Shown here: positions 4,678 to 32,000 of the stretch, one piece after another | How the letters are laid out: each line of letters opens with the position of its first letter | How positions within the stretch are numbered: position 1 is the first letter of the stretch | Source of the DNA: Geotalea uraniireducens Rf4 | GTDB taxonomy: Bacteria > Desulfobacterota > Desulfuromonadia > Geobacterales > Geobacteraceae | DNA: 32,000 nt | Direction: 5' to 3' | Assembly: GCF_000016745.1 (NCBI RefSeq) | Contig: NC_009483.1 | Location: forward strand, 3,000,001 to 3,032,000 | Program-made: the position numbers and the translations under genes | Notes under the pieces: model-generated | What the model saw: only the letters and a program-made list of their open reading frames with translations | What the model was told of the DNA's origin: nothing | Database searches by the model: none

Positions 4678-4695
4678 CTCGTCAGATATAGATTA

Positions 4696-6087: not shown

Positions 6088-6103
6088 AGATGGTTATTTG
6101 AGA

Positions 6104-6775: not shown

Positions 6776-6791
6776 TTGCTACCCTTATCAG

Positions 6792-7394: not shown

Positions 7395-7713
7395 GACCGC
7401 ATCTAACCGTTGCAATTACGAGGCTCCCGACATTTGCTGCGCATCCGCACAGGGTCCACGCCTCCAGCCTCCCTTTCAGTTGATACGACTGTATATAAAC
7501 TTGAGGTTTGTATCAGGAAAATAGCATAGAATTGTTACGGGCTGGAGGCGGAGCGATTACATTTAGGAAAAGAATTGTTGCAGGTGTGATTCGAGACAAT
7601 ACTGCCACCGCAGTATTGACCGGGTAGCTGCTCGCACTCTGCGGCATAGCACCTGTTATCGACGAAATTATCATAGTGCTCGCCGATTTCAGCGTTGTCC
7701 GGTACAGCCCATC

Positions 7714-14250: not shown

Positions 14251-16689
14251 ATGAAACCATTTAAAGCAGATCTTCATCTTCACTCCAGCCACTCCAACAA
14301 GCCGACCTACTGGGCGATGCGCAAGTTCAACGTCCCCGAAAGCTACACCTCGCCCCAGCACCTCTATCGAATCGCCCGTGATCGCGGCATGGATTACGTC
14401 ACCATTACCGACCATAACTCGATCACCGGGGCTCTGGAGATCGCCCACCTTCCGAATACTTTCGTCAGTTCGGAAATTACAGCCCATTTTCCGGAAAACG
14501 GTTGCAAAGTTCATGTGGTCGTCCTGAACATCAGCGAATACAATTTTTACGACATCATGGCCTTGCGGAAAAATGTCTACGAACTTGTCGCCTATCTGAA
14601 TCGGGAAGAGATCGCCCATTTTCTCGCCCATCCGATCTACGCCCAGAACGATAAATTGACCGCGGAAATCATCGAAAAATGTCTGCTCCTCTTCACCACC
14701 TTCGAGGTGAAGAACGGCTGCCGAGCTCGACGTTTCAACGGTTTTACGACGCGTCTCATTTCAACACTGACCGAGGAACGTATCGAGCATCTGGCCGACA
14801 AGCACGCCCTGCAACCCTACGGCTCATGCCCCTGGAAAAAAGGGAAAGTCGGGGGATCAGACGATCACGGCGGTCTGTTTATCGCCCGGGCCCATACGGT
14901 TGTCGCCGGAGGAGAGTCGGTCAACGCATTTCTTACGGCCGTGCGCAACGGAGATACGTGGGCGGAAGGCGAGGACGGCGGGCCGCTCACCATGGCCCAC
15001 AGCCTGTACGGTATCACCTACAGTTATTACAAGGAGCGTTTCGGCGAGCGGCGGCGCAGTGCAACCCCCTTTGTCAGCGCTTTGTTGGACCGTTTCTTCA
15101 ACCTGGGCACAGACAAGTTATCTTTTATCGAAAAAGTCAGGCTGTTCGTCCGCAAAAACCTTCCGGAGTCCCGCAACGCAACCGGCAGGAGTTTCGAAGA
15201 GATCCTCGACAGCGAAGCCAGGCAGCTGCTTAACGATACCGAGTTCGTGGCGAGCATCAAGGATGTCGACCATAACCGGAAGATTTTTGCCGTGACAAGT
15301 CGCCTGGCAAACCGGATTCTCTTCCATTACACGAGGCGTCTCATGTCGTTGCCCGGCAATGCCGGGTTCTTCGACTATCTCAACACCATCGGCACAATCG
15401 GCCTGGTGCATCTTCTTATCTCCCCCTACTACCTTGCCTTTCACCACCAGCACAAAAGCAAGGAACTGATGCAGGAACTTTCGAAGCAACTCCCCGATCG
15501 CGCCACCCGGCAGCCGGCTGAAAAGATCGCCCTGTTCACCGACACGCTCGACGAAATCAACGGCGTGGCCATAACGATCCGGCGCCTCATCAGCACGGCC
15601 CGGAACAGGGGGATCGAACTGACGGTGATAACGGCGGGGAACTCTACCGATGATGAGATGGTAGGCGTAAAAAAATTCGCCGCTGTCGGCGACTTTGTCC
15701 TGCCGGAATACCCTGAACTGAAACTCAGCTTCCCACCAATCCTCGACGTGATGGATTTCATCGAGAGAGAGGGATTTACCTCCATCCACGTCAGCACGCC
15801 CGGCACGGTTGGGCTGCTCGGGCTGCTGATCGCCCGCATGATGGACATTCCCCTGGCCGGCACCTATCACACCGACATACCGCAGTACGTGCGCTGCCTG
15901 ACCAATGACGAATTCCTGGAACAGGCCGCCTGGAGCTACATGGTCTGGTTCTACAATCAGATGGAAGAGGTCATGGTTCCTTCGGTGGGAACGAGGGAGC
16001 AACTGCTCGCCCGCGGCCTGCCGGCCAACAAGATGAAGCCGCTCCCCCGCTGGGTGGACACCGACCAGTTCACTCCGGCCGGGAAAACCCCGCGCTACTG
16101 GGAGGACCGTGGTCTGACCGGTGCTGTAAAGCTGATTTACGTGGGGCGCGTCTCGCGGGAAAAGTCTCTAGAACTCCTAACCGAGGCTTTTCGCGAGTTG
16201 GTCGACACCGGTGCGGATGTGGGCCTCGTCATAATTGGCGACGGTCCCTATCGTCAGGAGATGGAGACAGCCCTCGCGACCTATCCGGCGCTGTTCACCG
16301 GTTATCTGCACGGGGAAGAGCTGCAACGCGGCTATGCATCGGCTGATCTTTTCGTCTTTCCCAGCGCAACCGACACGTTCGGCAATGTCGTTCTGGAGGC
16401 GCAGGCCTCCGGCCTGCCCGTGATCGTATCCAACGCCGGCGGCCCACGTGAACTTATGGTCGAAGGGGAAACAGGAGCGGTCTTCCAGGCGGGCAGCAAG
16501 GACGATCTTATCGCCGCCATCAGGCGCTTGACTGCGAGTCGCCGGCTGCTGGCCGAAATGGGGGAAAAGGCCCGCACGTTCACCCTGCAGAAGGCGCCGA
16601 GCGTGGACGAAACCTACAGCACCATTTTGCACACAGGCGCTGCAGCGATTATGACTGACGAACATCAGGCGCCAGCAGGCGCAGCATAA
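14251..16689 (+). CDS. Fusion protein: N-terminal PHP-family metal-dependent phosphoesterase, a central linker with a hydrophobic helix, and a C-terminal GT4 glycosyltransferase
   Basis: The PHP motifs appear in order: DLHLHSSHS, VTITDHN, SSEIT, VHVVVLN, GGSDDHG. A hydrophobic segment, FFDYLNTIGTIGLVHLLISPYYLAF, lies mid-protein. The GT4 half has KIALFTDTLDEINGVA, YVGRVSREKS and PSATDTFGNVVLEAQASGLPVIVSN. Confidence 0.88.
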   Translation: MKPFKADLHLHSSHSNKPTYWAMRKFNVPESYTSPQHLYRIARDRGMDYVTITDHNSITGALEIAHLPNTFVSSEITAHFPENGCKVHVVVLNISEYNFYDIMALRKNVYELVAYLNREEIAHFLAHPIYAQNDKLTAEIIEKCLLLFTTFEVKNGCRARRFNGFTTRLISTLTEERIEHLADKHALQPYGSCPWKKGKVGGSDDHGGLFIARAHTVVAGGESVNAFLTAVRNGDTWAEGEDGGPLTMAHSLYGITYSYYKERFGERRRSATPFVSALLDRFFNLGTDKLSFIEKVRLFVRKNLPESRNATGRSFEEILDSEARQLLNDTEFVASIKDVDHNRKIFAVTSRLANRILFHYTRRLMSLPGNAGFFDYLNTIGTIGLVHLLISPYYLAFHHQHKSKELMQELSKQLPDRATRQPAEKIALFTDTLDEINGVAITIRRLISTARNRGIELTVITAGNSTDDEMVGVKKFAAVGDFVLPEYPELKLSFPPILDVMDFIEREGFTSIHVSTPGTVGLLGLLIARMMDIPLAGTYHTDIPQYVRCLTNDEFLEQAAWSYMVWFYNQMEEVMVPSVGTREQLLARGLPANKMKPLPRWVDTDQFTPAGKTPRYWEDRGLTGAVKLIYVGRVSREKSLELLTEAFRELVDTGADVGLVIIGDGPYRQEMETALATYPALFTGYLHGEELQRGYASADLFVFPSATDTFGNVVLEAQASGLPVIVSNAGGPRELMVEGETGAVFQAGSKDDLIAAIRRLTASRRLLAEMGEKARTFTLQKAPSVDETYSTILHTGAAAIMTDEHQAPAGAA

Positions 16690-16928: not shown

Positions 16929-17927
16929 TTACTCGGGAGCCTGCCTCCCACCCTTTGCCCCGGGTTCGCCACGCAGCATGAGCAGCCAGAGCAGGACCGG
17001 CGCAAGGTACTGGCCGACCAGACTGATCCCCATTGACAGCCTGATTGCGGGTTCGTTGTGAAAGGCGGTCATCATCACATTGCAGATCCTGAACATGACC
17101 TGTATGCCGACGATGGCCGCCAGCCCCGCTGCCAGCGCCGTGAGTTTCCGCTGCATCACGCGGTGGCGGCTGGCCAGGACAAGCCCGACAAAGGTCACCA
17201 CGTTGAAGGTCTGATAATAAATCTCGTGCTGGTATGGTATTTCGAGACGATAGTCGAACAGAGCGAATAGAGCCGTAACCAGGTGATCGGTCAGCCTGAC
17301 GTACTCCTTGTTGATCGCAAGCCATACAAGAAAGGGAATGGCGGAAAAAGCAACGAAACGGACCGGAAAAGCGGCAGGCGTGAACCGTGGAGCGGCCGGC
17401 GATGCTGCTCGCAGCCATGCCATGCAGACGGCAAGGACGAACAGGACCATCAGGACCTGCCCGAGATAGACATGGACGAATTCGAAGAGATTCTGCTTTC
17501 GCAGGCCGATGGCGAACACCGCGGCAATGCGCAGGATGTTGCCCGCATGGAGAACCGGTATCCCGAGAGCCAGGCCGATAAGCTTCCGGCTCAGGGATAT
17601 CGGGTAGGCAATGACGAAGGAGAAGAACAGTATCCCCATGTAGAGGACCGAGCATTCCGTGATGACCCTGACCGCAAAGCCGTCCTGGCTGAGGGTGAGC
17701 CCCTGGAGGGCCGGATGGATGCCGAATGGTCCCAGGCAACAGGCAGACATGCGGGCGGTATGGCGGTTTAACGGCTCAAACAGGGATTCGGGCAGCCAGG
17801 TGGCGAGGGTATAGAGCAAAATACAGCAGATGCCGAATGTGACGGCAAACCTGACGTCGATGACGGACTGACCGGATGGTGCTCCGCTGCCGGCCCGCCA
17901 CGATTTAAAGCCCCTTTTCCGGTTCAT
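16929..17927 (-). CDS. Exosortase/archaeosortase-family transpeptidase (XrtH-like by context) with an additional C-terminal multi-TM region
   Basis: The conserved exosortase triad sits in its usual helices. Cys is in VITECSVLY (codon 17654-17652). Arg is in HAGNILRIAAV (17531-17529). His is in FVHVYLGQV (17474-17472). About 160 further residues carry about 4 hydrophobic helices. I prefer ATG 17927 over the track's TTG at 17939. The gene starts 24 nt after the PPIase stop. Confidence 0.75.
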   Translation of the reverse strand: MNRKRGFKSWRAGSGAPSGQSVIDVRFAVTFGICCILLYTLATWLPESLFEPLNRHTARMSACCLGPFGIHPALQGLTLSQDGFAVRVITECSVLYMGILFFSFVIAYPISLSRKLIGLALGIPVLHAGNILRIAAVFAIGLRKQNLFEFVHVYLGQVLMVLFVLAVCMAWLRAASPAAPRFTPAAFPVRFVAFSAIPFLVWLAINKEYVRLTDHLVTALFALFDYRLEIPYQHEIYYQTFNVVTFVGLVLASRHRVMQRKLTALAAGLAAIVGIQVMFRICNVMMTAFHNEPAIRLSMGISLVGQYLAPVLLWLLMLRGEPGAKGGRQAPE

Positions 17928-17951
17928 GGAACCATCCAAAAAATATTCGGA

Positions 17952-20849: not shown

Positions 20850-20924
20850 TGAAAACCTCCAGATAGTTGAGTCCATTTATGTAATCTAGTGCTGATCTTC
20901 AGCCATCAAGACAAAGCAAGCGCC

Positions 20925-21006
20925 TCCCCCTTTAAGAAAGGGGGAATGAGGGGGATTTGCCTGTCGCATTCTAAATCCCCCCTGGCCCCCCTTTCCCAAA
21001 GGGGGG
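20925..21006. repeat. Triple-hairpin G5/C5 intergenic element, copy A
   Basis: H1 is tCCCCCTTTaagAAAGGGGGa (20925-20945). H2 is GGGGGATTT-14 nt-AAATCCCCC (20950-20981). H3 is CCCCCCTTTcccAAAGGGGGG (20986-21006). It lies between tonB and the porin-like gene. Confidence 0.85.
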
Positions 21007-21019
21007 TAAAACCTTAATC

Positions 21020-21754
21020 CTATCCCTGCAACGAAATTTTCAGGTTCATGCCGCTCGGCATCCCCTCCGGCGGCGGCTCGCTGATGTGTATGAGCCTGAT
21101 TGCTTCCAAAACCGCTTTGTCCATTCTTTCATTTCCGGACGTGCCGGTAATGCTGAACTTGACCACCGTGCCCCGCTGATCGAGAAAAATCTTGACCAAG
21201 GCCTGGTTTTTCCCTTTCGGGTAGCCGCCTTCCCGTTCCAGGCGTTTTTTCACCTGGTTGCGGATTTCGTCCTGAACCTTCTGGGTATACCAGCCGTACC
21301 TGGCCAGGAGCGACAGGCGGTTTGCGCCGCCGCTGTTGCCGCCACCGATCAGCCCCCGGCCACCCTTTTTCCCCACAAGGCCGAAACCGTCCGACCCGGC
21401 ACCCCCCTCCCCGTCAACCCCCAGGTCGCTGCCGGCAGGGGTGTTGTCCTGCGGTTGATCCTGGGCCTGGTTCTGCGGCGACTGCGGGGATTCCTGGGGA
21501 GTAGTGATGGTCTCCTTGGGGATCTCTTTCTGCACCTGCGGGGGAGGTTCCGGCGGTTTTTCCTTCACATCGGGCGGCGGCTTGATCAGCGTGATACTGG
21601 CGATCTTCTCCTGTTTCCGCCCGCCGTCATCGGACAGCATGATCCTGATCACAAAGACGATCAGACCGAGAAAGACCAGGCCGATCACCCCCGGCACCAG
21701 CCAGGTTTTGTACAATCCTGTGAGAGTGTCTTTTTTATGTTTCAACTTTTTCAC
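21020..21754 (-). CDS. tonB: TonB-family energy transducer
   Basis: GTG start with GGAG 5 nt upstream. An N-terminal TM anchor (WLVPGVIGLVFLGLIVFVI) is followed by a Pro/Glu/Lys-rich spacer (KPPPDVKEKPPEPPPQVQKEIPKE). An unusual Gly-rich stretch follows. The C-terminal TonB_C-like domain reads YPKGKNQALVKIFLDQRGTVVKFSITGTSGNERMDKAVLEAI. Confidence 0.85.
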   Translation of the reverse strand: MKKLKHKKDTLTGLYKTWLVPGVIGLVFLGLIVFVIRIMLSDDGGRKQEKIASITLIKPPPDVKEKPPEPPPQVQKEIPKETITTPQESPQSPQNQAQDQPQDNTPAGSDLGVDGEGGAGSDGFGLVGKKGGRGLIGGGNSGGANRLSLLARYGWYTQKVQDEIRNQVKKRLEREGGYPKGKNQALVKIFLDQRGTVVKFSITGTSGNERMDKAVLEAIRLIHISEPPPEGMPSGMNLKISLQG

Positions 21755-21782
21755 GGCTACTCCATGCGGATTCCGATGGATA

Positions 21783-21867
21783 CCCCCCTTTTAGAAAGGG
21801 GGGCCAGGGGGGATTTCTCCGCGGCAATCATTGTAAATCCCCCTAAATCCCCCTTTCTCAAAGGGGG
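21783..21867. repeat. Triple-hairpin G5/C5 intergenic element, copy B (inverted relative to copy A)
   Basis: The hairpins are CCCCCCTTTtagAAAGGGGGG (21783-21803), GGGGGGATTT-18 nt-AAATCCCCC (21807-21843) and CCCCCTTTctcAAAGGGGG (21849-21867). The spacer CCA between the first two hairpins is the reverse complement of the TGG spacer in copy A, which gives the opposite orientation. It lies between exbD and tonB. Confidence 0.85.
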
Positions 21868-21889
21868 ACTTTATGCTTCCGGCTGGAAA

Positions 21890-22297
21890 CTATTTGACCA
21901 GCTTCTGCGTCACTAGTCCGAGCTGGGTAATCTCCAGTTTTTGCAGAAGGTCCAGCACCTCGATGATGTTCTTGTAGGAAATTTTTTCATCCCCCCTGAC
22001 CACCACCGGGAGATTCGGGTCGGACGCCTTGGCCTGGCGCAGCCGGGATTCCAGGTCCGAAATCGTGACCGGAAAACTGTCCAGGTAGATCGTCCCGTCC
22101 CCGGTGATGGTGATCGCCTTGGTGGTCGGCTTGATCTTGCTGGCCGCGGCGCTCGCCTTGGGAAGGTTGACGCTGATCCCCTGCACCGAGGCGGTAACCA
22201 CGAGCATGAACACGACCAGGAGATTCCAGGCCAGGTCCAGCATCGGGACAACATTGATTTCTACAATGTCTTCGTGATCATCTGCCGGCGCTTTCAT
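21890..22297 (-). CDS. exbD: ExbD/TolR-family biopolymer transport protein
   Basis: 135 aa. INVVPMLDLAWNLLVVFML is the conserved TM segment with the essential Asp. A periplasmic domain follows (ITITGDGTIYLD...VVVRGDEKISYKNIIEVLDLL). The start overlaps the exbB-like stop (ATGA, 22294-22297). Confidence 0.9.
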   Translation of the reverse strand: MKAPADDHEDIVEINVVPMLDLAWNLLVVFMLVVTASVQGISVNLPKASAAASKIKPTTKAITITGDGTIYLDSFPVTISDLESRLRQAKASDPNLPVVVRGDEKISYKNIIEVLDLLQKLEITQLGLVTQKLVK

Positions 22298-24090
22298 GCG
22301 GATTCTCCGTAATTCCCTGCGATCTTGAGGTTGAGCTCTTCAATGAACAGCCGGGTATCGATATTGACGTTTTTCATCTGGGCCGCCAGGTATGTGTAGG
22401 CGAACAGCGCCGGGATGGCGACCAGGAGACCGAACAGTGTACAGGCCAGCGCCGAAGCGACACCCGGCGCAATGGCTGCCAGGCTGGCTTCACCGGACTC
22501 GGCCAGGCTGGCGAAGGTATTCATGACCCCCCACACCGTCCCCAGCAGTCCCCAGAACGGTCCGCCGGAGATCCCCAGCGTCAGGACCATCATCCAGCCG
22601 TTAAGTTTCTTTGTTTCATTGGTGCTGGCCCGGTCCAGGGCAGCCTCCACATAATTCAGGGATGCCCTGCTTAGGGCGTTCTTCTTCGAGGAGTTCGCCC
22701 GCTCCAGGCAGCGCTGGACTTCGTCATAACCGGCGCAATAGATGCGCCACAGGGACGAGTGCTGGAAGGCCTCTTCCTCTTCATGAAGCGCCAGGGGATC
22801 GTCGAGTTCGCCGAAAATGGCAAGGAAGGCATGGTTCCCCTTGGTGATTTTCTGCAGGGCGATGAACTTGCGGACGAAAACGTAAGTGGCCAGGAGAAGC
22901 ATGCCTGTGCAAAGGCCGATGACCAGCCAGCCGTCGAGGGAGATGCTCTTGGAAATGACCCGCATCATGTGGATGGTCATATCTTCGCCGCCACCCTTGC
23001 CGCCGGCCTCCTCCTGCTGGTAGGCGGAGAGCTTTCCCTCCTGCCCCTGGCTGCCGAAGGCGACGCCGATCCATCCGGCAGAGCGGGCAACCGACGATAT
23101 CTCCACTTCATCCATCTCACCCGCATAGAAACCGCCGCCGTTCAGGGCAGCGCCGACCGCCAGCTCCGCAGCAGGAGAAGGTAGCGCCACGGCCAGAGGC
23201 GCAGCAGCAGCTTCCCGGCCATCCAGGTAGACGACAACCCTCTTGCCCGGCTCCGCGGAGACGGCCAGGTGATGCCAACTCTGGGAGGTGATAGCGGGGG
23301 TCTTGCCGGTGACAGCCTGCTTGCCGTCCCCAGTGATGCGGCAATAGGCGCCGGCCGGGTCCAAGCCGACAACGATCGACTGGCTGCCGTCATCCCAGGA
23401 AAAGAGGCGCGCATCGGCAGCTGTTCCGGCCGGCTTGAGCCATGCGGAAAAGGTAAAACCCTTGCTGAAGTTCAGTGATGACGAGCGCTTGATCACCAGC
23501 CTGTCGCTGCTGCCGTTGAACGCCGCGCCATTGCCGATGGCCGCCGGTATCCCCAGCTTGCCGCTGAACTCGGCTCCGTGATTGGCATAGGCAGTGGCGT
23601 CACGGGGCGTGCCCTCCTTCTCGTCGAAATGGAAAGACGCCGCCATGGTCGCGTCGTAGGTCCCGCCGTCATCAGGGACGGCTTCAACCGAATTGTTGCC
23701 GTAATAGATCCAGACGGAATCCTGTGCTGATCCGCCGGTGATCTGCGGTACCTTGACCCAGAACAGGCCGATGGCAAGCTTCGGATCGTACTTCTCCAGG
23801 TGCGCCTTGAGCGGGGTCTTGTCATCGCCGCTGACGAACCTGATGTCGGAGCCGTCATCCTTGGCATTGGCGAAGGTGAAATTCCCTGCATGGAGGCGGA
23901 GCAGGACCGGCACCTCGGTCAGGTTGTCCTTGATGTTCGTCCCCTTATCCGTGGTGTCGAAAGCCACCTTCTTGCGAAACTGCCATTTTGCATCCCACCA
24001 GGCGTTGGCCTGGAGCACGCCGGTCATCATCACCAGGGCGATTACCATCCCGGTGACGCTCAATAATTTCCCATGAATACTTCCCCTCAT
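22294..24090 (-). CDS. exbB: MotA/TolQ/ExbB proton-channel protein fused to an N-terminal DUF2341 plus LamG (concanavalin-A-like lectin) module
   Basis: The signal peptide is LLSVTGMVIALVMMTGVLQANA. DUF2341-like motifs are present (WWDAKWQFRKKVAFD, DGSDIRFVSGDD, VWIYYGN). A LamG-like region runs FHFDEKEG...FTFSAWLKP...WHHLAVSAEPGKRVVVYLDG...FYAGEMDEVEISS. Three TM helices follow, with the ExbB signature GGPFWGLLGTVWGVMNTFASLA. GGGAGGaatggcATG sets the start at 24090, 24 nt after the giant gene's stop. Confidence 0.85.
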   Translation of the reverse strand: MRGSIHGKLLSVTGMVIALVMMTGVLQANAWWDAKWQFRKKVAFDTTDKGTNIKDNLTEVPVLLRLHAGNFTFANAKDDGSDIRFVSGDDKTPLKAHLEKYDPKLAIGLFWVKVPQITGGSAQDSVWIYYGNNSVEAVPDDGGTYDATMAASFHFDEKEGTPRDATAYANHGAEFSGKLGIPAAIGNGAAFNGSSDRLVIKRSSSLNFSKGFTFSAWLKPAGTAADARLFSWDDGSQSIVVGLDPAGAYCRITGDGKQAVTGKTPAITSQSWHHLAVSAEPGKRVVVYLDGREAAAAPLAVALPSPAAELAVGAALNGGGFYAGEMDEVEISSVARSAGWIGVAFGSQGQEGKLSAYQQEEAGGKGGGEDMTIHMMRVISKSISLDGWLVIGLCTGMLLLATYVFVRKFIALQKITKGNHAFLAIFGELDDPLALHEEEEAFQHSSLWRIYCAGYDEVQRCLERANSSKKNALSRASLNYVEAALDRASTNETKKLNGWMMVLTLGISGGPFWGLLGTVWGVMNTFASLAESGEASLAAIAPGVASALACTLFGLLVAIPALFAYTYLAAQMKNVNIDTRLFIEELNLKIAGNYGESA

Positions 24091-24114
24091 GCCATTCCTC
24101 CCGAGTCTTTCCCT

Positions 24115-27100
24115 TTACTGCTGTTTATTTTCCGTGTCGCGTTTATCGTCCGCATCGTCGAAACTGCTGTCGAAACTGATCACCTTGACATCGAGCCATT
24201 TGGCCACGAAATCCTCTACCGCCTGGTTGCCCGAAGCGGCGGTCTTATCCTTCCCCGCGCCAAGGCTATTGGTCTGCTCAATCATCTTGCCGCTGTCCGC
24301 CAGCCCGCCGGCCCCCGCCAGCGCGCCGATGCTGACCCCGCTGTCGGCCGCAGTGGCGCCGACCACGGACCCGACAGAGGCAGCAATGTTGCCCGCATTA
24401 ACAAGATTCGGAGTGTCAACCACGACTATGCCCCCGGCAATCCCCGCCTCCCCGGCATCAATCGACCCTTTCGTCGCAGAGAGGTTGACGTCGCCCTGTT
24501 GCGTACCGGGAGTATAGCTCAAGGTCCGAATGCCGCTCCCCACCGCCGGCGGGCTGAAGACCAGCATGTATTCAGCAGGAATTTTTCCTTCCGGGTCGAG
24601 CGCTCCCGTGCCATCTTTCAATACCAGTTTAGGCGGATCGGCGCTGATGGCCGCTTTGGACCCTCGCCCGGCATTGATGCTCCCCTTCTCGCTCCAGACG
24701 TTTATGTCACCACCGTCAAAGGTCATCACCCTCGCTTCGTTGACGTTCACGTCCCCCCCGGCGTAGATGTTGATGTTGCCACCCTTTGCGGTGAAGATCC
24801 CTGTGTTTTTCAGATTCTCTTCCTTTTTCTTTTTATCCAGATTGATGGTGCTCTTCCCCACATTAACCGCCTCCCGCGCCAGGATGTAAATGTCGTCAGC
24901 CCCGGAATTGGTGCTGATCTGGGAGGAGGTCATATTGATATTGCCGCCGTCATTTGCCGGATCTGCGTTCAGGGCATAATAGGCGGCAACTGCCGTTCGT
25001 TCATCGGCAAGCCGCTGATCTGCCGCAGCATAAAGTTCTTCAAATTTTTCCAGATTGTCGTGTTCTTTCTCGAAATTCGCTTGCGCCTTGAGTTGTTGAA
25101 TTTCAACAGCGGTATTTTTCATACTGTCGAATTGACCTGTTACATCAGCAAAACCCGCCGCAATAAGGAGATCGCTCCCCTTCGCACCCAGGTTCTGATT
25201 AAAGGCCCCGCCATAGGTCTGGAGGCCCCTGGTGGTGCCGAGATCGATGTTGTGACCGGCCTGGACCAAAAGTGTGCCCGAACCGCCCAGCTCGATGCCT
25301 GTGCTGCTGTTGTCGCTCCCCGAAAGGGAGCTGAAGAAAATATCCCGGCCCGCCTGGATGGCCGTCATATCGCTCGCCGAGTGGTTCTGGCCGACAAGAT
25401 ATATGTCCCGTACGTCCCGGCCGGCGCTGATTTGCGCCTGTTTCGGAAGGAAGAGTTGCAGGTTCTTGATGTCACCGCCCGCCGTGATCGTGATGGGAGA
25501 TGGGTGCTGCTGACGCTCTGACTCCCATTCAGGATCGGTGTTGTGCGAGTGGGAATCGAAAAAAGTGGATTCTTTCGGAATAGCGTCTGGATTGGTATTT
25601 GTATGGGCGTTGTAAACTGTCTCGGGGTCAATGTCCGACATGGAGATTTTGGTGTTGCCTGTATCTCCGTGATTCACGCCGCGGATGTCCCCACCTGCAA
25701 TCAGTGTGAGTCCCCCCTGTGCCGAAGGGGCCAATGCCAGATTATTGCCCAGGTTGATATTACGGCCGGCTGCAATCTCCAATGTCGGGGGGAGTATCCG
25801 CGCCTTCCAAAGAGCATTGAAAATAGAGTAATAGTTGCCGGAAGTAAGTCCGGAAATGGCCACGTCACCGTTCTTGGCATGCAACCGAACCTTGGAGTCG
25901 CTGCTGTAAAGGAGATTCCACCTATAGTCGTTGCCGCCGTTATTAATAACAACGGTTGGGTTGACTACCGAGCCAAGGGTGACGTTCCCTTGGGCCGACA
26001 CATCAGCTTTCGTGGCAAAGGCCTCTATGACCGTTTCCACAGGAGTGCTTAGTCTGCCATAACTGTCAGTGGTCTGCGCTGTGCCGAAGTTGCCGAGACT
26101 ACGCAGCTCGGCATTTCCCTGCCTGGTCAGAAAGCGTCCATTCAGGTTGCCACCCGTATGGAGCAGCAAATCACCACTGCCGAAGGTCCCCGCCTGGGAG
26201 TTGAAATCTCCGCCACTAATCACTTCAAGTGTGCCGCCGGCCATTGTCGCCAATCCGCGCACAGGCTCATTTTTCCCGTTTATTTTGAAAGAGGCACTCA
26301 GGAAATACTGCGCAGTAGTCCCAATCCCCACTTTGTTCATGTAATACCAGGCAGCCGGCGCCACGCCCCCCTTGATGTCTCTTCCCGCAGTCAAGGAGAT
26401 GTCGCCTCCGCCGGCATAGTCCCAGTAGTTGCCGGCAGGCGTGGTCTGCTCGCCGGTGGTACGGATGGAACCCAAGAGGCCGCCAGGCTCAAACAGGTTG
26501 AAGTCGCGGGTGACACTGATTGCAATATCTCCGGTCGCCGACTGAATTACCCCACTCTTGTTCATCACCAGGTCCCCTTCCACATTACCCTGGATGGTGC
26601 CGCCATAGGTGCCTATGTTATATTTCAGGTCATTATTGATCATAGAACTTGCGGAAATGGTGCCGATGACGGTATTGCCGCCCGATGCAAAACTGACGGG
26701 CGCCTTCTCACTATAAACCGACTGCTTGTCTGCGATCGTCAAGATCCCTTTGTCCGGCTTGACCGCCATGGGATCTGCGGCATTCAGATCAGCGCCGGCC
26801 ACGAGCCTGATCCCCCAGGAAGCGGCGCCGCCGTTGGTTCCCGGGAGTGCGCTCTTGGCCGTGGGTGAATCCGTCAGGGAATTGTTGATGTTCAGGTTTC
26901 CCGCCGCACGCAAGGTCAGGACTCCCGGCTGGCCTGCTGCTCCAAAGCGCCAGAAGGTAAGATCCCATGGCGTGTTCAGGGTGAGGGAGCCACTGCTTCG
27001 CACCTCGATGCCGGGACGGAGATCAAACTGGCCGGCGCTGACCGTCTGACTTTCCATCAAGGCCGCAATGGCGGTGTTCCAGCTGGTCAGGTCGTCTGAG

Positions 27101-30100
27101 GTAATGGTGCCGGCATTCTGCGGATTGACGACCTGTACGGCCTCTGCCGTTTTGCTCGACGCTCCCTTGACGGTGACGTTCAGGTTGCTGGTATTGACGC
27201 GGCTGCTGTCAAAGGCGGCTGCAGGCGCCCGTAAAGATACGCTCCCTCCTTTACCCGCCCCGCTTACATCTATCGATCCTCCGGCCAGGTTCAGGACCCC
27301 GCCGGCTGTACCGAGGGACACGTCGCCGCCGGTACCGTTTGCTGCCGTAGCCTGTGCCCCTATAGTGCCGCTGAGCGATAAATCCTTCCCCGCATTCAGC
27401 GCCACGGTCCCTCCCTGGTTCCCCGAGGCATCGACTGTTCCGGCAACGGTGACGTTACCGGCATCAGCCGCCACCCTGAAGAGATGGGCCTTCACCCTGT
27501 CATCCGCGGCAACCGTCACATCCCCGTTACGGCTGCGGATGTTCAACTCTTCGGTGAAGCCCCCTGCCGCCACCTTGTCGTTGAGGGCGGAAAAAGTTGC
27601 CAACTGGCAGGTATCGAGGGTAAGGGAGCCACCTTTGCCACCGTTGCTCATGCCTAGCAATTCGCCGCTCAGGTCTGCTTCCCGCTTATCCGCAATGATT
27701 GCGACAGTGCCGGCATCGCCTGCTCCCGGCGCGGAAACGTCAATTTTTGCGTCCTTTTCAAGGGTCATGACCCCGGCGGAACGGAGTTCAATCCGCCCGG
27801 CAGATTCACTGTCCGTGGTTCCGTCGGCATTCGGTTTGTAATCATGCCCCCTCGCCCGGATCGCGGCGCCGCTCCGGAGTTTGATCCCGTCATCGGTCCC
27901 GGTCCCGGTCGCCTCCAGTTTCACCCGGCCGGCGGGGAGGTCGATGAGACCGCTGCTCTCTATGCTCCCGGCAGTGATGTGGATGGCGCCGCCAAGCGCC
28001 GTATCCTGCCCTGCCTGGGCACCGCTTGAGGCGAGCGTAAACGTCCCGGAACCTGCATCTATCTTGAAATTGGCCGCCTGGTAGGTGGGGGCGAGAAGCG
28101 CGCCGTTGGCATCGGTGACTGTACCCCACTCCACATTTGGGGCCGCCGTCAGCCTGGCTGTTGTCATGTTCAGGTCAGCGCCGTTGGTCGTTAGCGAGCC
28201 AACCCCTTTCAGGGTCATATCGTTCGTGCTTTTAAGGTCAACTTTGCTGAAGCCGTCGAGCATGCCATCACCCTTGCCGATGGTCATGCTGTCCGTGGCG
28301 GTAAGGCTAAGCTGGCCGGTGGCGGCTGATGCTGCGCCGGTATACTTCGCGCCGCTGTTGAGCAGGGTGATTACCGGTGCGGTAAGGGAAACAGCTCCGG
28401 TGCCCCCCGTCTTGGCGATCCGCCCGGCATCGATGGTCAAAGCCTTGGTCGCTGACTCGGTGAAATCCCCGTAGAATGTTATATCCGAGCTTTTCAAGGT
28501 AACGTCGGTAAAAGGGTGTGTGTTTCTTTCGCTTGCAACGGTGAGCCGCTTCCAGAGTGCATCGGTAAGGTAGAACGCAGTGGCTGAGCTGCCGGACTTA
28601 TAGTCCTCAGCCACAAAGGAGAGCTTGTCCCCCTTGAGAATAAGCTTGCCGTTGTCTGCAACCAGGGGCGAGTCCCCCTGCAGCTCAACCTGCTTCGTCT
28701 CAAGGCTCACCGTATCGGTAGCCTGGACCTGCCCCCCCGCCTCCACGACAATTTTGTTCTGACTGACCAGATTGACGGTCCCGCCGCCATCTGCCGTTGA
28801 CGCCGGTGTCCCCGTTATCTTGGCTTTGACCTGTGCGTCTTTTTCGATGGTAATGGCGTCTTTCGCAGTCAGGGTTACCGTCTCCGCTTCCAGGGTCGTC
28901 CCCTGCTTCACCGTAACCGTCACGGTCGAGTTCGCGGTATTTGCGGCATCAATCGAGCCGAGCCTGACCTCTTTCAGCCCTTTTCCCAGGGTCGAGGCGG
29001 CCAGTTGGAGCGTTCCAGCCAATCCGGCAGGAACCGGGCTCGCGAAATTGAAGCCCTTGTCCAGGGGAACCGTATCTGCCTGGACCGTCACGTTTTTGCC
29101 GCTCAGGTCTACCACCCCGCCGCTGGACCCGGCAACGGCGTCCGCCTTCAGGGTCCCGTTGAGGATCGTGGTGCCCCCCAGCAGGGTTATCGTGCCCGCA
29201 TCGCCGCCGCTGAACTCGGTGGCAGATGGTTTTGTTGCTACATCGCCCGTCAGGTACGCCCCCGGCGTGAAATTACCCTCCCTGAGCACGTCCGCAGCAC
29301 TGCGCACCGCATACCCCTTGAAAACCGGCGAACTGATGCCAGTCCCCACGACCGTCTCATAACCGGCGGCCACCGGATACCCTTCGGTGGTAACGAATTG
29401 TCTACCCGGCATCACCGTGCTTCCCAGGTCTGTCAGGATCAGCGCCCCCGGCAGAAAAGCGTACTGCTCGGGGAGAAGTGAATAGGTCCCCTCGTTTAGA
29501 TAGCTGCCGTCACTCAGACGGATTGCCGCCAGGTGAACGGCGCAGAAGGGCTTGCTCTTTACCTTCCCGTCCACGTCCGTATAGGTGTAAGTGAAGCCGG
29601 GCAGCTGCACCGAATTGTCCGGAACAATGACATAGCGGTCAGGGCGAGTTTTCTGATTGTTCAGAATCCCTTTAGCAGTGATCGGATTCACCGTCCCCTC
29701 GATACCGGGCATGAACGTGGTTGCGTAAACGGAACCGCCGCCGGACACGTCGATCGTCGCCTGCTCCCTGACAATCACCTCTTTGCCGTTGATGGTGATA
29801 GACTTTTCCGGGGCCGCAGTCACGATTGTCCCCTTTGATTCGAGGCCCGACTTCTTGTCCATGAATCGCATGACCCCGTCGGCATCGACAAAGCCGTACG
29901 CCACCGGCGCAGTGCCGGCAGTGGTCAATGTGCTCCCCGGCGCCAGGTATACGCGACTCGTGGCGGCATAGGCGGGGGCATTGTTCAAGGAGATCGTCCC
30001 GAGCGGGGCGGCAATGAAACCATTGTGCTCGATGCCTTTTTTGGCATTGATGGTGAGGCTGCCCCCTGCTGAGTAGACCGGAGTGGAAACAACAGGCGCC

Positions 30101-32000
30101 GCCAGGGTGGTGAACTTCCCTTCCACGTTGATGGTGAAATCAGAGCTGACCATCCCCTGCGCCGGACTAGCCGCGTCAAATGGATGCATCATCGGATAGA
30201 TCCGCTCAGCCTTGATGGTCAGGTCCCCCGGCACCGCCAGTGACCCGTTCCAGACAGTACCTGATGCAGAATCGGCCAGTCTAAGATCATGCTTCGCATT
30301 CAGATTGGTGGCGGCAAAACCATCAAGGGCGATTTTCCCTTCGACATCCAGCCAATCGCCGGTCAGGTTCAGCGTCGCCGTTTCCGCAGCGCCGGTGGTT
30401 ACAGGGACTGTGGAAGGATTGCTGTCGATCAGCCTGATCCAGGGCGCAATGAAATAAACTGCATCCTTGCCGGAACCGGTGATTTTGGGCGCATCCAGAG
30501 TCAGGCTTCTGCTGATGGACAGCCCCTTGCTGTACTTTGAAACGTCAAAGCCGGTAAAATTTAGGCCATTCAAGCTGGTAAAGGTGAAGGCATCGAACCC
30601 GTCGTCCGTGAACCCCTTGATCTGGTCGGCGGACAGGGAGAGGGGGTTGACGCTATCCCTGCTGGTTATACTCAGCCCCCCCCCTTTGATTCCCTCCTTG
30701 CTGCCGGCGCTGCCGATCAACTTTCCGTCGAGCCTCAGGTCACCCACGGCGGCCAGAATGACCTCTCCCGGGGCACCCGCCATTAACGTGGAGGTCCGCA
30801 TCCCGTTGACAGCGGTAACAAAAGTTTTTACCGGTGCTATGCCGGCAACGCTCACCAGCGAGCCGGAGGAAAGATTCAGGTCGCCCTTGCTTGCATCGAG
30901 GGAAATGGTGCCACCTGAGAGTGGGAGGTATCCTGTATCGGCTTTGCCGGCCAACGTAGAAAGATAGGGCTTGGCGAATCCATCAGCCAGCAGCTTTCCT
31001 TTAATCTCAAGGTCACCCTCATTTGCCGTCACCGTGATCCGACCTGCCGGCGCATTGAGGGTGCCATGCACAACCACATTCGGCGCTGTCAGAGATATCA
31101 TACCGTTAGGGGCTATGGTCTCAATGGTCGCGCCCGGCGCTACGGTCAATTTGGCTTTTGGGTTTGGCTCATTGACCATGTTTCCCTGCGCGTCGTCATC
31201 TCTTGTACCTTCAAACCTGGCATTGGCCGTTAACGACAGGGAGGTTGTCCCCAGGTAATCCGCCAGTGCAAGCCCGCCGGGGAAGAGTTCACCATCGGCA
31301 GGCCTCGTCGTGAGTTCGGTACCGGCGGTATCAACGGCCATGCCGGGTGTCGGCATGGCCAGCCTGGTTTTTGATGGAGCGAGGTCGATCCCGTTCAAGA
31401 TGGTCAGATCGTCCTTGCTTTTCAGCTCGATATTCGTGAAGCCGGTGTTGGCCAACCGGTTGCCGGCAAAGGTCAGTTTCCCCTGGATGTCAACAGGCAG
31501 GGTTGTGTCGCCGGACTGGAGATTCCGCTGCAATGACTGCAGATCCGGGTCAGCAGCCGGTGTTACCGCCACCTCGCCGGCATGCATAGAAATTGTTCCG
31601 CCTTTCATCCCCGGCAGAGCGTATCCACGCAGGTCGCCGTCCGCCACCAGGGTCGAGCCCTGCAACGTGAGCGTGCCGGCATTACCGCCAGTAACCTTTC
31701 CCTTCTGGTCGATCAGATAGCCGCCGCTCACATCCACTACTGCGCCCTCTCTGATGGTCACCCCGAGGCCGCTGTCCGTCTTGTCCTTGATATCGATAAC
31801 CCCGCCCCCCGTGTGGGCGATGCGGGGCATATCGCCAGCTGCGCCGTTGGCGGGATAATTGTCAACCCTTTCCCCGGCAACGGAAATCCGACTCCCGTCA
31901 GCCAGGTAGATTTTCGACACGAGGGGATGGTCGGGATTGTCCGAGTCAAACGTGGTCTTATTGTCCATCGTCTTCAGGGTCACATTCCCGCCGGGAACAG
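24115..32000 (-). CDS. Giant filamentous-haemagglutinin (FhaB/PdtA)-like beta-helical exoprotein, C-terminal 2,628 or more codons. The N-terminus, with the expected TPS secretion domain, lies beyond base 32000.
   Basis: One uninterrupted reverse-strand frame runs from the window edge to TAA 24117-24115. The track's start at 31983 is an internal GTG, and the frame stays open upstream (..VPGGN|VTLKT..). The protein is Gly/Thr/Ala/Asn/Ser-rich with degenerate beta-helix rungs (GGTISLDASKGDLNLSSGSLVSVAG, GGDVSLGTAGGVLNLAGGSIDVSGAGKGGSVSLRAP). The C-terminal region (GGDINVWSEKGSINAGRGSKAAISADPPKLV) resembles the DUF3739-type end of PdtA-like TpsA proteins. The tail is acidic, with no TM segment or sorting signal. 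Confidence 0.85.
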   Translation of the reverse strand, partial: VPGGNVTLKTMDNKTTFDSDNPDHPLVSKIYLADGSRISVAGERVDNYPANGAAGDMPRIAHTGGGVIDIKDKTDSGLGVTIREGAVVDVSGGYLIDQKGKVTGGNAGTLTLQGSTLVADGDLRGYALPGMKGGTISMHAGEVAVTPAADPDLQSLQRNLQSGDTTLPVDIQGKLTFAGNRLANTGFTNIELKSKDDLTILNGIDLAPSKTRLAMPTPGMAVDTAGTELTTRPADGELFPGGLALADYLGTTSLSLTANARFEGTRDDDAQGNMVNEPNPKAKLTVAPGATIETIAPNGMISLTAPNVVVHGTLNAPAGRITVTANEGDLEIKGKLLADGFAKPYLSTLAGKADTGYLPLSGGTISLDASKGDLNLSSGSLVSVAGIAPVKTFVTAVNGMRTSTLMAGAPGEVILAAVGDLRLDGKLIGSAGSKEGIKGGGLSITSRDSVNPLSLSADQIKGFTDDGFDAFTFTSLNGLNFTGFDVSKYSKGLSISRSLTLDAPKITGSGKDAVYFIAPWIRLIDSNPSTVPVTTGAAETATLNLTGDWLDVEGKIALDGFAATNLNAKHDLRLADSASGTVWNGSLAVPGDLTIKAERIYPMMHPFDAASPAQGMVSSDFTINVEGKFTTLAAPVVSTPVYSAGGSLTINAKKGIEHNGFIAAPLGTISLNNAPAYAATSRVYLAPGSTLTTAGTAPVAYGFVDADGVMRFMDKKSGLESKGTIVTAAPEKSITINGKEVIVREQATIDVSGGGSVYATTFMPGIEGTVNPITAKGILNNQKTRPDRYVIVPDNSVQLPGFTYTYTDVDGKVKSKPFCAVHLAAIRLSDGSYLNEGTYSLLPEQYAFLPGALILTDLGSTVMPGRQFVTTEGYPVAAGYETVVGTGISSPVFKGYAVRSAADVLREGNFTPGAYLTGDVATKPSATEFSGGDAGTITLLGGTTILNGTLKADAVAGSSGGVVDLSGKNVTVQADTVPLDKGFNFASPVPAGLAGTLQLAASTLGKGLKEVRLGSIDAANTANSTVTVTVKQGTTLEAETVTLTAKDAITIEKDAQVKAKITGTPASTADGGGTVNLVSQNKIVVEAGGQVQATDTVSLETKQVELQGDSPLVADNGKLILKGDKLSFVAEDYKSGSSATAFYLTDALWKRLTVASERNTHPFTDVTLKSSDITFYGDFTESATKALTIDAGRIAKTGGTGAVSLTAPVITLLNSGAKYTGAASAATGQLSLTATDSMTIGKGDGMLDGFSKVDLKSTNDMTLKGVGSLTTNGADLNMTTARLTAAPNVEWGTVTDANGALLAPTYQAANFKIDAGSGTFTLASSGAQAGQDTALGGAIHITAGSIESSGLIDLPAGRVKLEATGTGTDDGIKLRSGAAIRARGHDYKPNADGTTDSESAGRIELRSAGVMTLEKDAKIDVSAPGAGDAGTVAIIADKREADLSGELLGMSNGGKGGSLTLDTCQLATFSALNDKVAAGGFTEELNIRSRNGDVTVAADDRVKAHLFRVAADAGNVTVAGTVDASGNQGGTVALNAGKDLSLSGTIGAQATAANGTGGDVSLGTAGGVLNLAGGSIDVSGAGKGGSVSLRAPAAAFDSSRVNTSNLNVTVKGASSKTAEAVQVVNPQNAGTITSDDLTSWNTAIAALMESQTVSAGQFDLRPGIEVRSSGSLTLNTPWDLTFWRFGAAGQPGVLTLRAAGNLNINNSLTDSPTAKSALPGTNGGAASWGIRLVAGADLNAADPMAVKPDKGILTIADKQSVYSEKAPVSFASGGNTVIGTISASSMINNDLKYNIGTYGGTIQGNVEGDLVMNKSGVIQSATGDIAISVTRDFNLFEPGGLLGSIRTTGEQTTPAGNYWDYAGGGDISLTAGRDIKGGVAPAAWYYMNKVGIGTTAQYFLSASFKINGKNEPVRGLATMAGGTLEVISGGDFNSQAGTFGSGDLLLHTGGNLNGRFLTRQGNAELRSLGNFGTAQTTDSYGRLSTPVETVIEAFATKADVSAQGNVTLGSVVNPTVVINNGGNDYRWNLLYSSDSKVRLHAKNGDVAISGLTSGNYYSIFNALWKARILPPTLEIAAGRNINLGNNLALAPSAQGGLTLIAGGDIRGVNHGDTGNTKISMSDIDPETVYNAHTNTNPDAIPKESTFFDSHSHNTDPEWESERQQHPSPITITAGGDIKNLQLFLPKQAQISAGRDVRDIYLVGQNHSASDMTAIQAGRDIFFSSLSGSDNSSTGIELGGSGTLLVQAGHNIDLGTTRGLQTYGGAFNQNLGAKGSDLLIAAGFADVTGQFDSMKNTAVEIQQLKAQANFEKEHDNLEKFEELYAAADQRLADERTAVAAYYALNADPANDGGNINMTSSQISTNSGADDIYILAREAVNVGKSTINLDKKKKEENLKNTGIFTAKGGNINIYAGGDVNVNEARVMTFDGGDINVWSEKGSINAGRGSKAAISADPPKLVLKDGTGALDPEGKIPAEYMLVFSPPAVGSGIRTLSYTPGTQQGDVNLSATKGSIDAGEAGIAGGIVVVDTPNLVNAGNIAASVGSVVGATAADSGVSIGALAGAGGLADSGKMIEQTNSLGAGKDKTAASGNQAVEDFVAKWLDVKVISFDSSFDDADDKRDTENKQQ

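Follow-up and report, generated by a model that had tools for sequence, protein, structure and literature searches.

Two-partner secretion (TPS) is the textbook route of export across the outer membrane (OM) without an energy source. Here, we describe a locus of Geotalea uraniireducens Rf4 in which the gene of a giant TPS fiber (tpsA) is followed on the same strand by the genes of a Ton/Tol-family motor, i.e., an ExbB-like and an ExbD-like stator protein and a TonB-like transducer, and by the gene of a porin-like OM protein. It lies in a stretch of 32,000 nucleotides (NC_009483.1, positions 3,000,001 to 3,032,000), which we call the window and in which all positions given below are counted. 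The closest described system is found in Pseudomonas aeruginosa PAO1, where pdtA (PA0690), pdtB (PA0692), exbB2 (PA0693), exbD2 (PA0694), and tonB4 (PA0695) lie in this order (PMC7035377, PMC4971064), an adjacency that the initial annotation of the Geotalea DNA had given correctly. The pdtA gene has its own promoter, and phdA-pdtB-exbB2-exbD2-tonB4 together with the genes from PA0696 to PA0701 form one PhoB- and VreI-dependent transcript (PMC4971064), in which a putative porin is encoded by PA0696 and an isomerase of the PpiC type by PA0699. Homologues of the TPS genes, exbBD, and PA0696 accompany the vreAIR genes of the PUMA3 system in several Proteobacteria, namely, P. fluorescens, P. entomophila, Burkholderia, Rhodopseudomonas, and Janthinobacterium (Llamas et al. 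2009, PMC2729926). The association of TPS and motor genes in PAO1 was still called "uncharacterized" in 2020, and a motor was not listed among the accessory components in a 2017 review of TPS. Our full-text literature searches (DUF3739, DUF2341, and TpsA with ExbD) found no functional study of the module, and the literature searched contained no mention of it outside the Proteobacteria without sigma/anti-sigma genes.

Several better-known systems share individual features with the window. HxuA-HxuB-HxuC of Haemophilus influenzae is likewise a TPS pair encoded with an OM partner, and its secreted TpsA works with an energized OM protein; however, HxuC is a classical plug-and-barrel TonB-dependent transporter (TBDT) and there is no motor in the operon, whereas the window encodes a plug-less 16-strand Porin_5 barrel with a dedicated stator and TonB. 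A functional analogy is offered by the Agl-Glt machinery of Myxococcus xanthus, in which the TolQR-like AglRQS acts via the TonB-C-like GltG/J on OM barrels that are not TBDTs and on the adhesin CglB, although the components are unrelated, Glt has no TPS pair, and the window has no Glt proteins. The stator and transducer of the window score as TolQ/TolR/TolA-like, but compared with Tol-Pal the window lacks TolB, Pal, and CpoB, and its ExbB has an extra periplasmic module of 340 aa. Bordetella FhaB/FhaC, finally, also comprises a giant TpsA, the periplasmic C-terminal prodomain of which is thought to control the fate of the surface fiber; unlike the fiber of the window, FhaB has no adjacent motor, and its prodomain is removed by proteases.

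The window encodes the same families in the same order as pdtA/pdtB-exbB2-exbD2-tonB4-PA0696-PA0699, i.e., TpsA, stator A and B, a TonB-like protein, a porin, and a peptidyl-prolyl isomerase (PPIase), where the comparison rests on the published papers and on a PAO1-like copy of the cluster on a Klebsiella plasmid (see below). It differs from PAO1 in having no vreAIR genes in view, no counterparts of phdA, YbjN, PA0700, and PA0701, and no coiled-coil PA0697-like gene. Moreover, TpsB is not encoded between the fiber and the motor (it is upstream of tpsA in the nearest named relative), and a gene for the exosortase XrtH is appended. The window represents the deltaproteobacterial type of a cluster that has been recorded before; the conservation of this cluster across phyla is newly described here, and both the identity and the conservation of the module can be taken as almost certain. 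The motor is constantly accompanied by the TPS pair and a plug-less, stalked barrel, and not by a TBDT, which argues for a machine dedicated to the fiber system. Functional dedication of the motor to the fiber/porin set is therefore probable, and the best overall explanation, to which we assign a probability of roughly 50%, is that a Ton/Tol-family motor acts on the fiber system itself and not on a classical TBDT. In such a system, we infer, the proton-motive force may be coupled to a step in the life cycle of the fiber.

The genes are all on the minus strand (Table 1). The stop codon of the giant open reading frame (ORF) is TAA (24117-24115), and the frame runs without a further stop as far as base 32000, which gives 2,627 full codons and a partial one. 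GGGAGG lies 7 nt ahead of the ATG of the exbB-like gene at 24090, and a terminator scan of the spacer (24091-24114) gave no terminator-like site. The exbB-like and exbD genes overlap by ATGA (22297-22294), by which exbD is translationally coupled to its upstream neighbor. The tonB-like gene has a GTG start with GGAG upstream and follows exbD after 135 nt; the distances are 143 nt from tonB to the porin gene and 12 nt from the PPIase gene to that of XrtH. The initial annotation had read the end of the giant ORF, the start of exbB 24 nt further on, the ATGA overlap, and the same-strand tonB and porin-like genes in the same way, and all of these readings held on direct inspection of the sequence and in the Pfam scans. 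The same-strand string runs beyond the span considered there (21020-32000), taking in Porin_5, the SurA-like PPIase, and XrtH, and this span should be extended to at least position 17952. Across the whole window, 18 substantial ORFs were scanned and none matched Plug or TonB_dep_Rec, so the absence of a plug-plus-barrel TBDT, at first claimed for a part of the window, extends to the full 32 kb. A palindrome, CCCCTTTnnnAAAGGGG, occurs four times in the window (20927-21004 and 21785-21866; 0 expected), and all copies flank tonB, two in each region. These REP-like (repetitive extragenic palindromic) hairpins might give differential mRNA stability within the operon.

Table 1. Features of the fiber/motor gene string in the window
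Feature	Position	Strand	Basis or remark
Giant tpsA, 3' 7.9 kb	24115..32000	-	DUF3739/PdtA-like subfamily, type Vb; ORF open to base 32000
DUF3739 block, GGDINVWSEKGSINAGRGSK...IDAGEAGIAG...	24352..24714	-	Pfam; translation checked; last conserved β-helix coils of the fiber
WLDVKVISF strand motif	24172..24198	-	Translation checked; on a ~50-aa low-complexity tether, followed by an acidic tail
tpsA-exbB spacer, 24 nt, with GGGAGG Shine-Dalgarno sequence of the exbB-like gene	24091..24114	-	Read directly
Stator A (exbB-like), 598 aa	22294..24090	-	Pfam: DUF2341 + Laminin_G_3 + MotA_ExbB
Stator B (ExbD/TolR-like), 135 aa	21890..22297	-	Pfam: ExbD, 99 bits
exbD-tonB intergenic region with two copies of the CCCCTTTnnnAAAGGGG palindrome	21755..21889		Pattern search
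TonB/TolA-like transducer, 244 aa	21020..21754	-	Pfam: TonB_2, 54.8 bits
tonB-porin intergenic region with two CCCCTTTnnnAAAGGGG hairpins (REP-like)	20877..21019		Pattern search and direct reading
Porin_5 OM protein, 581 aa	19131..20876	-	Pfam: 396 bits
SurA-like periplasmic PPIase (PpiC type), 328 aa	17952..18938	-	Pfam: Rotamase + SurA_N_3
Exosortase XrtH	16929..17939	-	TIGR04177, 244.8 bits versus a cut-off of 86

The window holds the distal three-quarters of the tpsA gene. The remainder is found on a contig from Logan (L001) whose sequence agrees with that of the window at 100% identity over 10,159 bp, and the full product is 3,365 aa long. An extension past position 32000 had been proposed as a check for a TPS domain, and this domain (PF05860) was found at the N terminus of the L001-encoded product, with an NPNGI-like LNQNGILFG visible in the translation. 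The presence of the TPS domain on a 100% identical contig identifies the giant protein as a genuine TpsA. L001 ends approximately 0.7 kb upstream of the locus; neither the window nor this contig extends to a tpsB gene, and the promoter and any regulators are likewise beyond the window. In G. pickeringii and most family loci, tpsB adjoins tpsA, either upstream of it or between tpsA and exbB. The only Pfam match of the in-window ORF was DUF3739 (PF12545), with 112.6 bits versus a cut-off of 27 at residues 2429 to 2549 of 2,627. An AlphaFold2 model of the last 328 aa showed a β-helix at residues 55 to 247 with a pLDDT mostly of 85 to 95, followed by a tail with a pLDDT below 50. A Foldseek search of the PDB with the DUF3739 region gave generic β-helix proteins only, none of them significant, and a homology search with the fiber C terminus gave short fragments only (up to 567 aa), with no full-length giants and no P. 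aeruginosa protein. The fiber is a β-helical, DUF3739/PdtA-like TpsA of type Vb. Two other identities were tried and rejected. For a toxin of contact-dependent growth inhibition, no toxin domain was seen in Pfam or NCBIfam, and the exbB gene starts so soon after the stop codon that the 24-nt gap leaves no space for an immunity gene. For an exosortase substrate, the acidic tail has no sorting signal.

Stator A consists of a signal peptide, DUF2341 and Laminin_G_3 domains (approximately aa 31 to 370), and a MotA/TolQ/ExbB channel domain with three transmembrane (TM) segments (PF01618, 92 bits). By virtue of the signal peptide, the 340-aa DUF2341-LamG module is assigned to the periplasm. Sequence matches in the PDB were TolQ (1e-17) and ExbB (1.6e-15), both to the C-terminal domain only. 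The DUF2341-LamG-ExbB architecture was found in all 120 close homologues of stator A that were inspected, as well as in the Klebsiella plasmid copy; the nearest named homologues, with 58 to 65% identity, are from G. pickeringii, G. pelophilus, and Geobacteraceae metagenome-assembled genomes. An exhaustive search with the ExbB-like protein gave 1,259 cluster representatives at an E value of ≤1e-30. Among the listed matches, many are full-length fusions of 570 to 650 aa, and others are giants of 2,000 to 7,900 aa with up to 21 tandem copies of DUF2341 plus LamG, which marks the module as an extracytoplasmic building block. In stator B (PF02472), the essential TM aspartate of the proton pathway (PMLDLA) aligns with D25 of Escherichia coli ExbD, and it is kept in at least 70% of 71 family members. 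In some versions of the module (L152, L155, L157, L162, and L163), two consecutive ExbD genes follow that of the DUF2341-ExbB protein.

The transducer has an N-terminal TM anchor, a Pro/Lys/Glu-rich spacer (KPPPDVKEKPPEPPPQ), a Gly-rich segment, and a C-terminal TonB_2 domain. Its TonB_C score of 18.3 bits is under the cut-off of 24.6, and its NCBIfam match to tolA_full has an E value of 9.5e-10. The Gly-rich segment, LGxDAxGxAGxDxFGL...KGGRxL, is common to the TonB-like protein of the window and 62 homologues, in which it lies between the Pro-rich spacer and TonB_2. In NCBIfam, the scores for TolQ (123 bits versus a cut-off of 221), TolR (87 versus 127), and tolA_full (38 versus 59) exceeded those for ExbB and ExbD, and all were well under the equivalog cut-offs. 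Judged from these sequence scores, the motor seems at least as similar to TolQ/TolR/TolA as to ExbB/ExbD/TonB, with a channel domain about equally near to TolQ and ExbB structures. An identification of the motor as Tol-Pal was rejected, as the equivalog cut-offs were missed and no TolB or Pal family was matched in the scans of the window.

The OM protein matches Porin_5 (PF16930) with 396.5 bits over model positions 68 to 535 of 535. Its AlphaFold2 model (62 sequences, mean pLDDT of 81.7) is, at high confidence, a 16-strand barrel at aa 198 to 581 without a plug, preceded by a helical region at aa 46 to 190, a predicted periplasmic stalk of ~150 aa, for which the model confidence is lower. One to three LLxxKGxITxEEA repeats at the N terminus are conserved throughout the family, and no TonB-box-like strand was found as a conserved candidate in the Porin_5 N terminus. 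A sequence search against the PDB gave no match for the porin. In the fold search, with a Foldseek probability of 1.00 to porins, Veillonella OmpM1 was the best match (E value of 3e-17, TM-score of 0.74), followed by general porins and AlgE. As far as the model can tell, the window porin shares the 16-strand barrel and the N-terminal periplasmic helical stalk with OmpM1 of Veillonella parvula, but it has no SLH domain and only ~16% sequence identity. A protein of ~230 aa that combines a TM segment at its N terminus with a coiled coil is encoded after Porin_5 in 43 of the loci of the first scan described below, and its family merged with the Klebsiella PA0697-like protein in profile searches. 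It is absent from the window and from the Geobacter relatives, the porins of which have a longer N-terminal extension.

To assess conservation, we searched one genome per GTDB species with a DUF3739 C-terminal profile, confirmed at least 591 loci, and analyzed the best 80 of them, the ORFs of which were searched with iterated ad hoc hidden Markov models (HMMs) seeded from the window proteins; the PPIase profile under-detects. A second scan, seeded with TpsB, covered 80 metagenome loci and up to 10 kb upstream of tpsB. Both censuses consist of best-matching loci, and the DUF3739 sample is biased toward relatives of the query, although it covers several phyla. The DUF3739 loci came from Geobacteraceae, Desulfobacterales, Syntrophobacteraceae, Nitrospirota, Methylococcales, Steroidobacteraceae, Woeseiaceae, Burkholderiales, Sulfuriferula, Bradyrhizobium, and Myxococcaceae. 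The full set of ExbB N-terminal module, channel domain, ExbD, TonB C-terminal domain, and Porin_5 was found in 46 of the 57 DUF3739 loci with at least 6 kb of downstream sequence, spanning Desulfobacterota, Nitrospirota, and Gamma- and Betaproteobacteria; among the same 57 loci, stator genes were present in 48 and a downstream Porin_5 in 47. The median distance from the fiber stop to the exbB start was 107 nt, with 49 of 62 gaps no longer than 300 nt. When we started from ExbB and relied on precomputed, independent Pfam labels, a TPS plus DUF3739 giant was encoded upstream in 5/5 loci, and ExbD, TonB_2, Porin_5, and a SurA-like PPIase were encoded downstream, frequently along with a 230-aa protein.

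The probability that this ExbB paralogue adjoins this TpsA subfamily by chance would be well below 1%. A census of co-occurrence had been suggested together with the initial annotation, which called the module conserved but undescribed. Its conservation, well beyond chance, is borne out by the two sets of look-ups, while its being undescribed stands only in part, as the association was reported by Llamas et al. in 2009 (PMC2729926). A TBDT that would account for the motor was absent from the window and not recurrent elsewhere: Plug and TonB_dep_Rec were not among the Pfam families matched by at least four of the 67 largest unassigned neighbor ORFs from approximately 165 loci. These counts also bear on the idea that the genes form a spare Ton system for distant TBDTs which shares an operon with the fiber for co-regulation only. 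Multiple TonB/ExbBD paralogues are indeed common in bacteria; however, the gene order is the same in at least four phyla, the DUF2341-LamG ExbB stands beside a DUF3739 fiber in every ExbB-seeded look-up, behind the motor comes a dedicated barrel, and there are many short or overlapping junctions, so that we consider such regulatory hitch-hiking very improbable.

If the motor acts on the fiber system itself, a short motif near the end of the fiber could be the site of contact. WLDVKVISF lies 18 aa from the fiber C terminus, within the low-confidence tail of the AlphaFold2 model. The pattern [W/F][L/I]xVxV[I/V/L][G/S][F/Y], a feature defined in this analysis and not an established family criterion, was present in 79 of 96 complete C termini of the family at a median of 16 aa from the end, and most of the remaining 17 had obvious variants of it. 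It matched 0.7% of shuffled tails and 0.007 times per 110 aa in the fiber bodies, and it was rare or absent in the other module proteins, including Porin_5, TpsB, and the coiled-coil protein. We found no description of this C-terminal strand motif in the literature searched. Gammaproteobacterial variants carry an added pair of cysteines (…VVGYGxCSVADVRxGKxGCGG). WLDVKVISF can be viewed as a candidate strand for the docking of a TonB_2-type domain.

We envisage the following course of events. TpsA would thread outward through TpsB, and the end of the fiber, comprising the DUF3739 β-helix, a flexible tether, and the WLDVKVISF strand, would remain periplasmic, at least transiently. The TonB_2 domain would then grip the strand by β-strand augmentation, for which TonB with the TonB box and TolA with the N terminus of TolB are precedents. 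The stalked porin, along with the 230-aa coiled-coil protein in most lineages, would serve as a scaffold at the OM and in the periplasm, and the proton flow through ExbB-ExbD would pull on the periplasmic end of the fiber, which could thereby be held or tensioned at the surface or released. This specific combination of strand capture with a retention or release step is put forward tentatively, as is, with similar reserve, the broader notion of an unrecognized class of Ton/Tol-family machines for type Vb secretion, in which the stator and TonB_2 possibly act on a C-terminal strand and anchor, tension, retract, or release the fiber. That a TpsA subfamily comes with a proton-driven motor of its own in most of the lineages examined suggests a need for energy at some step, be it for retention, release, tensioning, or fiber-linked uptake. 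If the motor does work on the fiber, type V secretion would gain its first step that is coupled to energy, and Ton/Tol motors a new class of clients beside TBDTs, Tol-Pal, gliding, and the type IX secretion system. For the role of exbB2-exbD2-tonB4 and PA0696-PA0699 in the phosphate-starvation virulence regulon, a question of 15 years' standing, the module now offers handles in the strand at the fiber's C terminus, the stalked porin, the DUF2341-LamG module, and the coiled-coil protein.

Several observations weigh against an action of the motor on the fiber. To our knowledge, FhaB and CdiA, which are equally large TpsA proteins, need no motor. The TM helix of TonB and TolA typically carries a conserved Ser/His (SHLS-type) motif, but that of the transducer (TWLVPGVIGLVFLGLIVFVIRIML) has no such His, and no position of this helix reaches 60% conservation among 63 family members. 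Approximately 15% of the DUF3739 loci are motor-less within 10 kb and still have the C-terminal motif, so the motif is no proof of motor coupling; one motor per genome may serve several fibers in these cases. Transposon mutants of tonB4 and PA0696 were unchanged in VreI-induced virulence in zebrafish (PMC2729926), an assay that does not measure secretion. Last, the recurrent PstS-like genes and the phosphate regulation would suit a role in uptake at least as naturally.

Such a role is the main rival to be weighed, and a serious one. In this case, the module would mediate an energized capture of nutrients resembling that by HxuA-HxuB-HxuC: the fiber would scavenge a substrate, probably one containing phosphorus, the motor would act on the porin rather than on the fiber and gate Porin_5, and a PstS-like protein would take over the cargo. 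The HxuABC system sets a precedent as a TPS system with a TonB-dependent importer. The PAO1 cluster is controlled by PhoB and adjoins the genes of the LapA phosphatase and Hxc secretion, and its products are among those most induced by phosphate limitation, with PdtA, PA0696, and PA0698 among the most enriched proteins (PMC9769906). In 36 of the 80 TpsB-seeded loci, a gene upstream of tpsB encodes a protein of 468 aa that resembles the PstS family (TIGR02136, E value of 6e-13, below the cut-off), and Porin_5 follows tonB nearly as regularly as the stator genes accompany the fiber. A plasmid of Methylomagnum ishizawai (NZ_AP019784.1, L087) has a PstS-like (PBP) gene before a DUF3739 tpsB/tpsA pair with no motor nearby, and after the pair come genes of peptides with Cys at every fifth position, of the RiPP type (made on ribosomes and modified after translation), together with PhoX and a further alkaline phosphatase, which amounts to a setting of phosphate starvation outside Pseudomonas. 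On the other hand, Porin_5 is plug-less and has no conserved TonB-box-like strand at its N terminus, no catalytic or ligand-binding domain was detected in the 2,627 aa of the fiber, and the window contains no phosphate genes. Nutrient capture also leaves the DUF2341-LamG module on ExbB and the very tight spacing of fiber and exbB unexplained. We regard it as a possibility of rather low probability.

A further rival is cell-surface signaling. A complete PAO1-like module is carried by plasmid pKqq_SB98_1 of Klebsiella quasipneumoniae (NZ_CP084804.1, ~127-167 kb; L086/L088). There, an STN/TonB_2 protein, an extracytoplasmic function (ECF) sigma factor, and FecR are encoded twice, each time followed by tpsA, and then come tpsB, a 612-aa ExbB (DUF2341-LamG-MotA_ExbB), ExbD, TonB, and the putative porin, after which a 222-aa protein, YbjN, a PPIase, a hypothetical protein, and LysR are encoded. 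The Klebsiella proteins match our family profiles for the DUF3739 region, Porin_5, the coiled-coil protein, and TonB_C. The plasmid is a conjugative IncFIB plasmid, on which the module lies next to ars genes and IS26, and by this means the module can spread among the Enterobacteriaceae.

A signaling function would have the motor energize a signal from the fiber or the porin to the ECF sigma factor, with the fiber as sensor. In its favor, vreA, ECF sigma, and FecR genes flank the module in Pseudomonas, Burkholderia, Rhodopseudomonas, Janthinobacterium, and the Klebsiella plasmid, often once per tpsA paralogue. However, Klebsiella-seeded HMMs for sigma/FecR-like ORFs matched only in that plasmid locus, with 0/80 TpsB-seeded and 0/80 DUF3739-seeded loci, and there are no vreA, ECF sigma, or FecR genes in the window. 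The signaling genes are therefore best regarded as a proteobacterial add-on, signaling was rejected as the core function and the sigma/anti-sigma genes as universal partners, and we think it unlikely that the motor serves this end. In Proteobacteria, each tpsA paralogue is preceded by VreA, which combines STN with TonB_2 (PMC2729926 and the Klebsiella copy), so a TonB-box-like ligand is expected in the regulon, which indirectly favors the proposed gripping of a fiber strand by TonB_2. If the motor pulls on the fiber as proposed above, the TonB_2 domain of VreA would read the same C-terminal strand in these bacteria and pass the signal on to the ECF sigma factor.

The neighborhood of the module has also to be considered in view of an envelope tether, in which the Tol-like motor and the OmpM-like stalked porin would stabilize the OM, or of an export machine for matrix material (polysaccharide or exosortase-sorted proteins), of which the fiber would be merely a co-regulated component. 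The slightly higher scores of the motor against TolQ/TolR/TolA than against ExbB/ExbD, the OM-attachment porin as best fold match of the barrel with AlgE among the further matches, and the lectin-like domains of LamG type on ExbB would all fit, and so would the neighbors: Wzx, Wzy, and glycosyltransferase genes are often found 3' of the module, the window included, and exosortase/PEP-CTERM genes are common neighbors as well. Against this, TolB and Pal are absent, the proteobacterial versions have no polysaccharide or exosortase genes, and the constant partner is the TPS pair. In L004, L005, L038, and L097, an exosortase gene lies within the module or adjoins it, but such a gene is present in only 3 of the 57 census loci, and XrtH is a lineage-specific accessory outside the core module. 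A tether or matrix exporter thus has, in our estimation, little chance of being the right explanation. In the Nitrospirota relatives L005 and L038, an exosortase and a sedolisin are encoded between tonB and the porin gene.

Other accessory genes recur around the module. The PPIase is encoded at the same position in L004, L005, L169, L170, and L171 and on the Klebsiella plasmid, and that of the window is the counterpart of PA0699. Upstream of tpsB in the TpsB-seeded loci (L089-L168), besides the PstS-like gene, we found genes of a 312-aa protein with weak similarity to FKBP in 41 loci and of 258-aa PEP-CTERM proteins, weakly similar to the flocculation protein PepA, in 26 loci. TPR proteins made up 14 of the 67 large neighbor ORFs (L004-L168), and 7 of these have a GT41 domain. 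The TpsA adhesin HMW1 is glycosylated by HMW1C, a member of the GT41 family, and the GT41 neighbors may likewise modify the fiber.

The rest of the window encodes a few further proteins of interest. A 726-aa S8 protease with DUF11 repeats (9091-11271, plus strand) ends in an IPTL-CTERM signal (VPALSPWG...RKRRK; TIGR04174, 33.4 bits versus a cut-off of 20.5). XrtH and this IPTL-CTERM protein are encoded 6 kb apart, and the protease is the likely substrate of XrtH. The giant fiber has no IPTL-CTERM signal. A secreted-looking protein of 729 aa without a Pfam family (11786-13975, plus strand) has a TBDT-like size but no Plug or barrel signal. It is followed by an 812-aa protein (14251-16689, plus strand) with GT4 in its C-terminal half and a PHP-like N terminus (HLHSSHS...TDHNSI) that was not called by Pfam. 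On the minus strand, positions 3391 to 7415 form a low-GC island (34 to 41% versus ~58% elsewhere) that encodes Wzy_C, a MatE/Wzx-like flippase, a hexapeptide acetyltransferase, and DUF218, and that is probably a horizontally acquired O-antigen/exopolysaccharide cassette. Similar Wzx, Wzy, glycosyltransferase, and DUF218 genes are found 3' of the module in L169 and L170.

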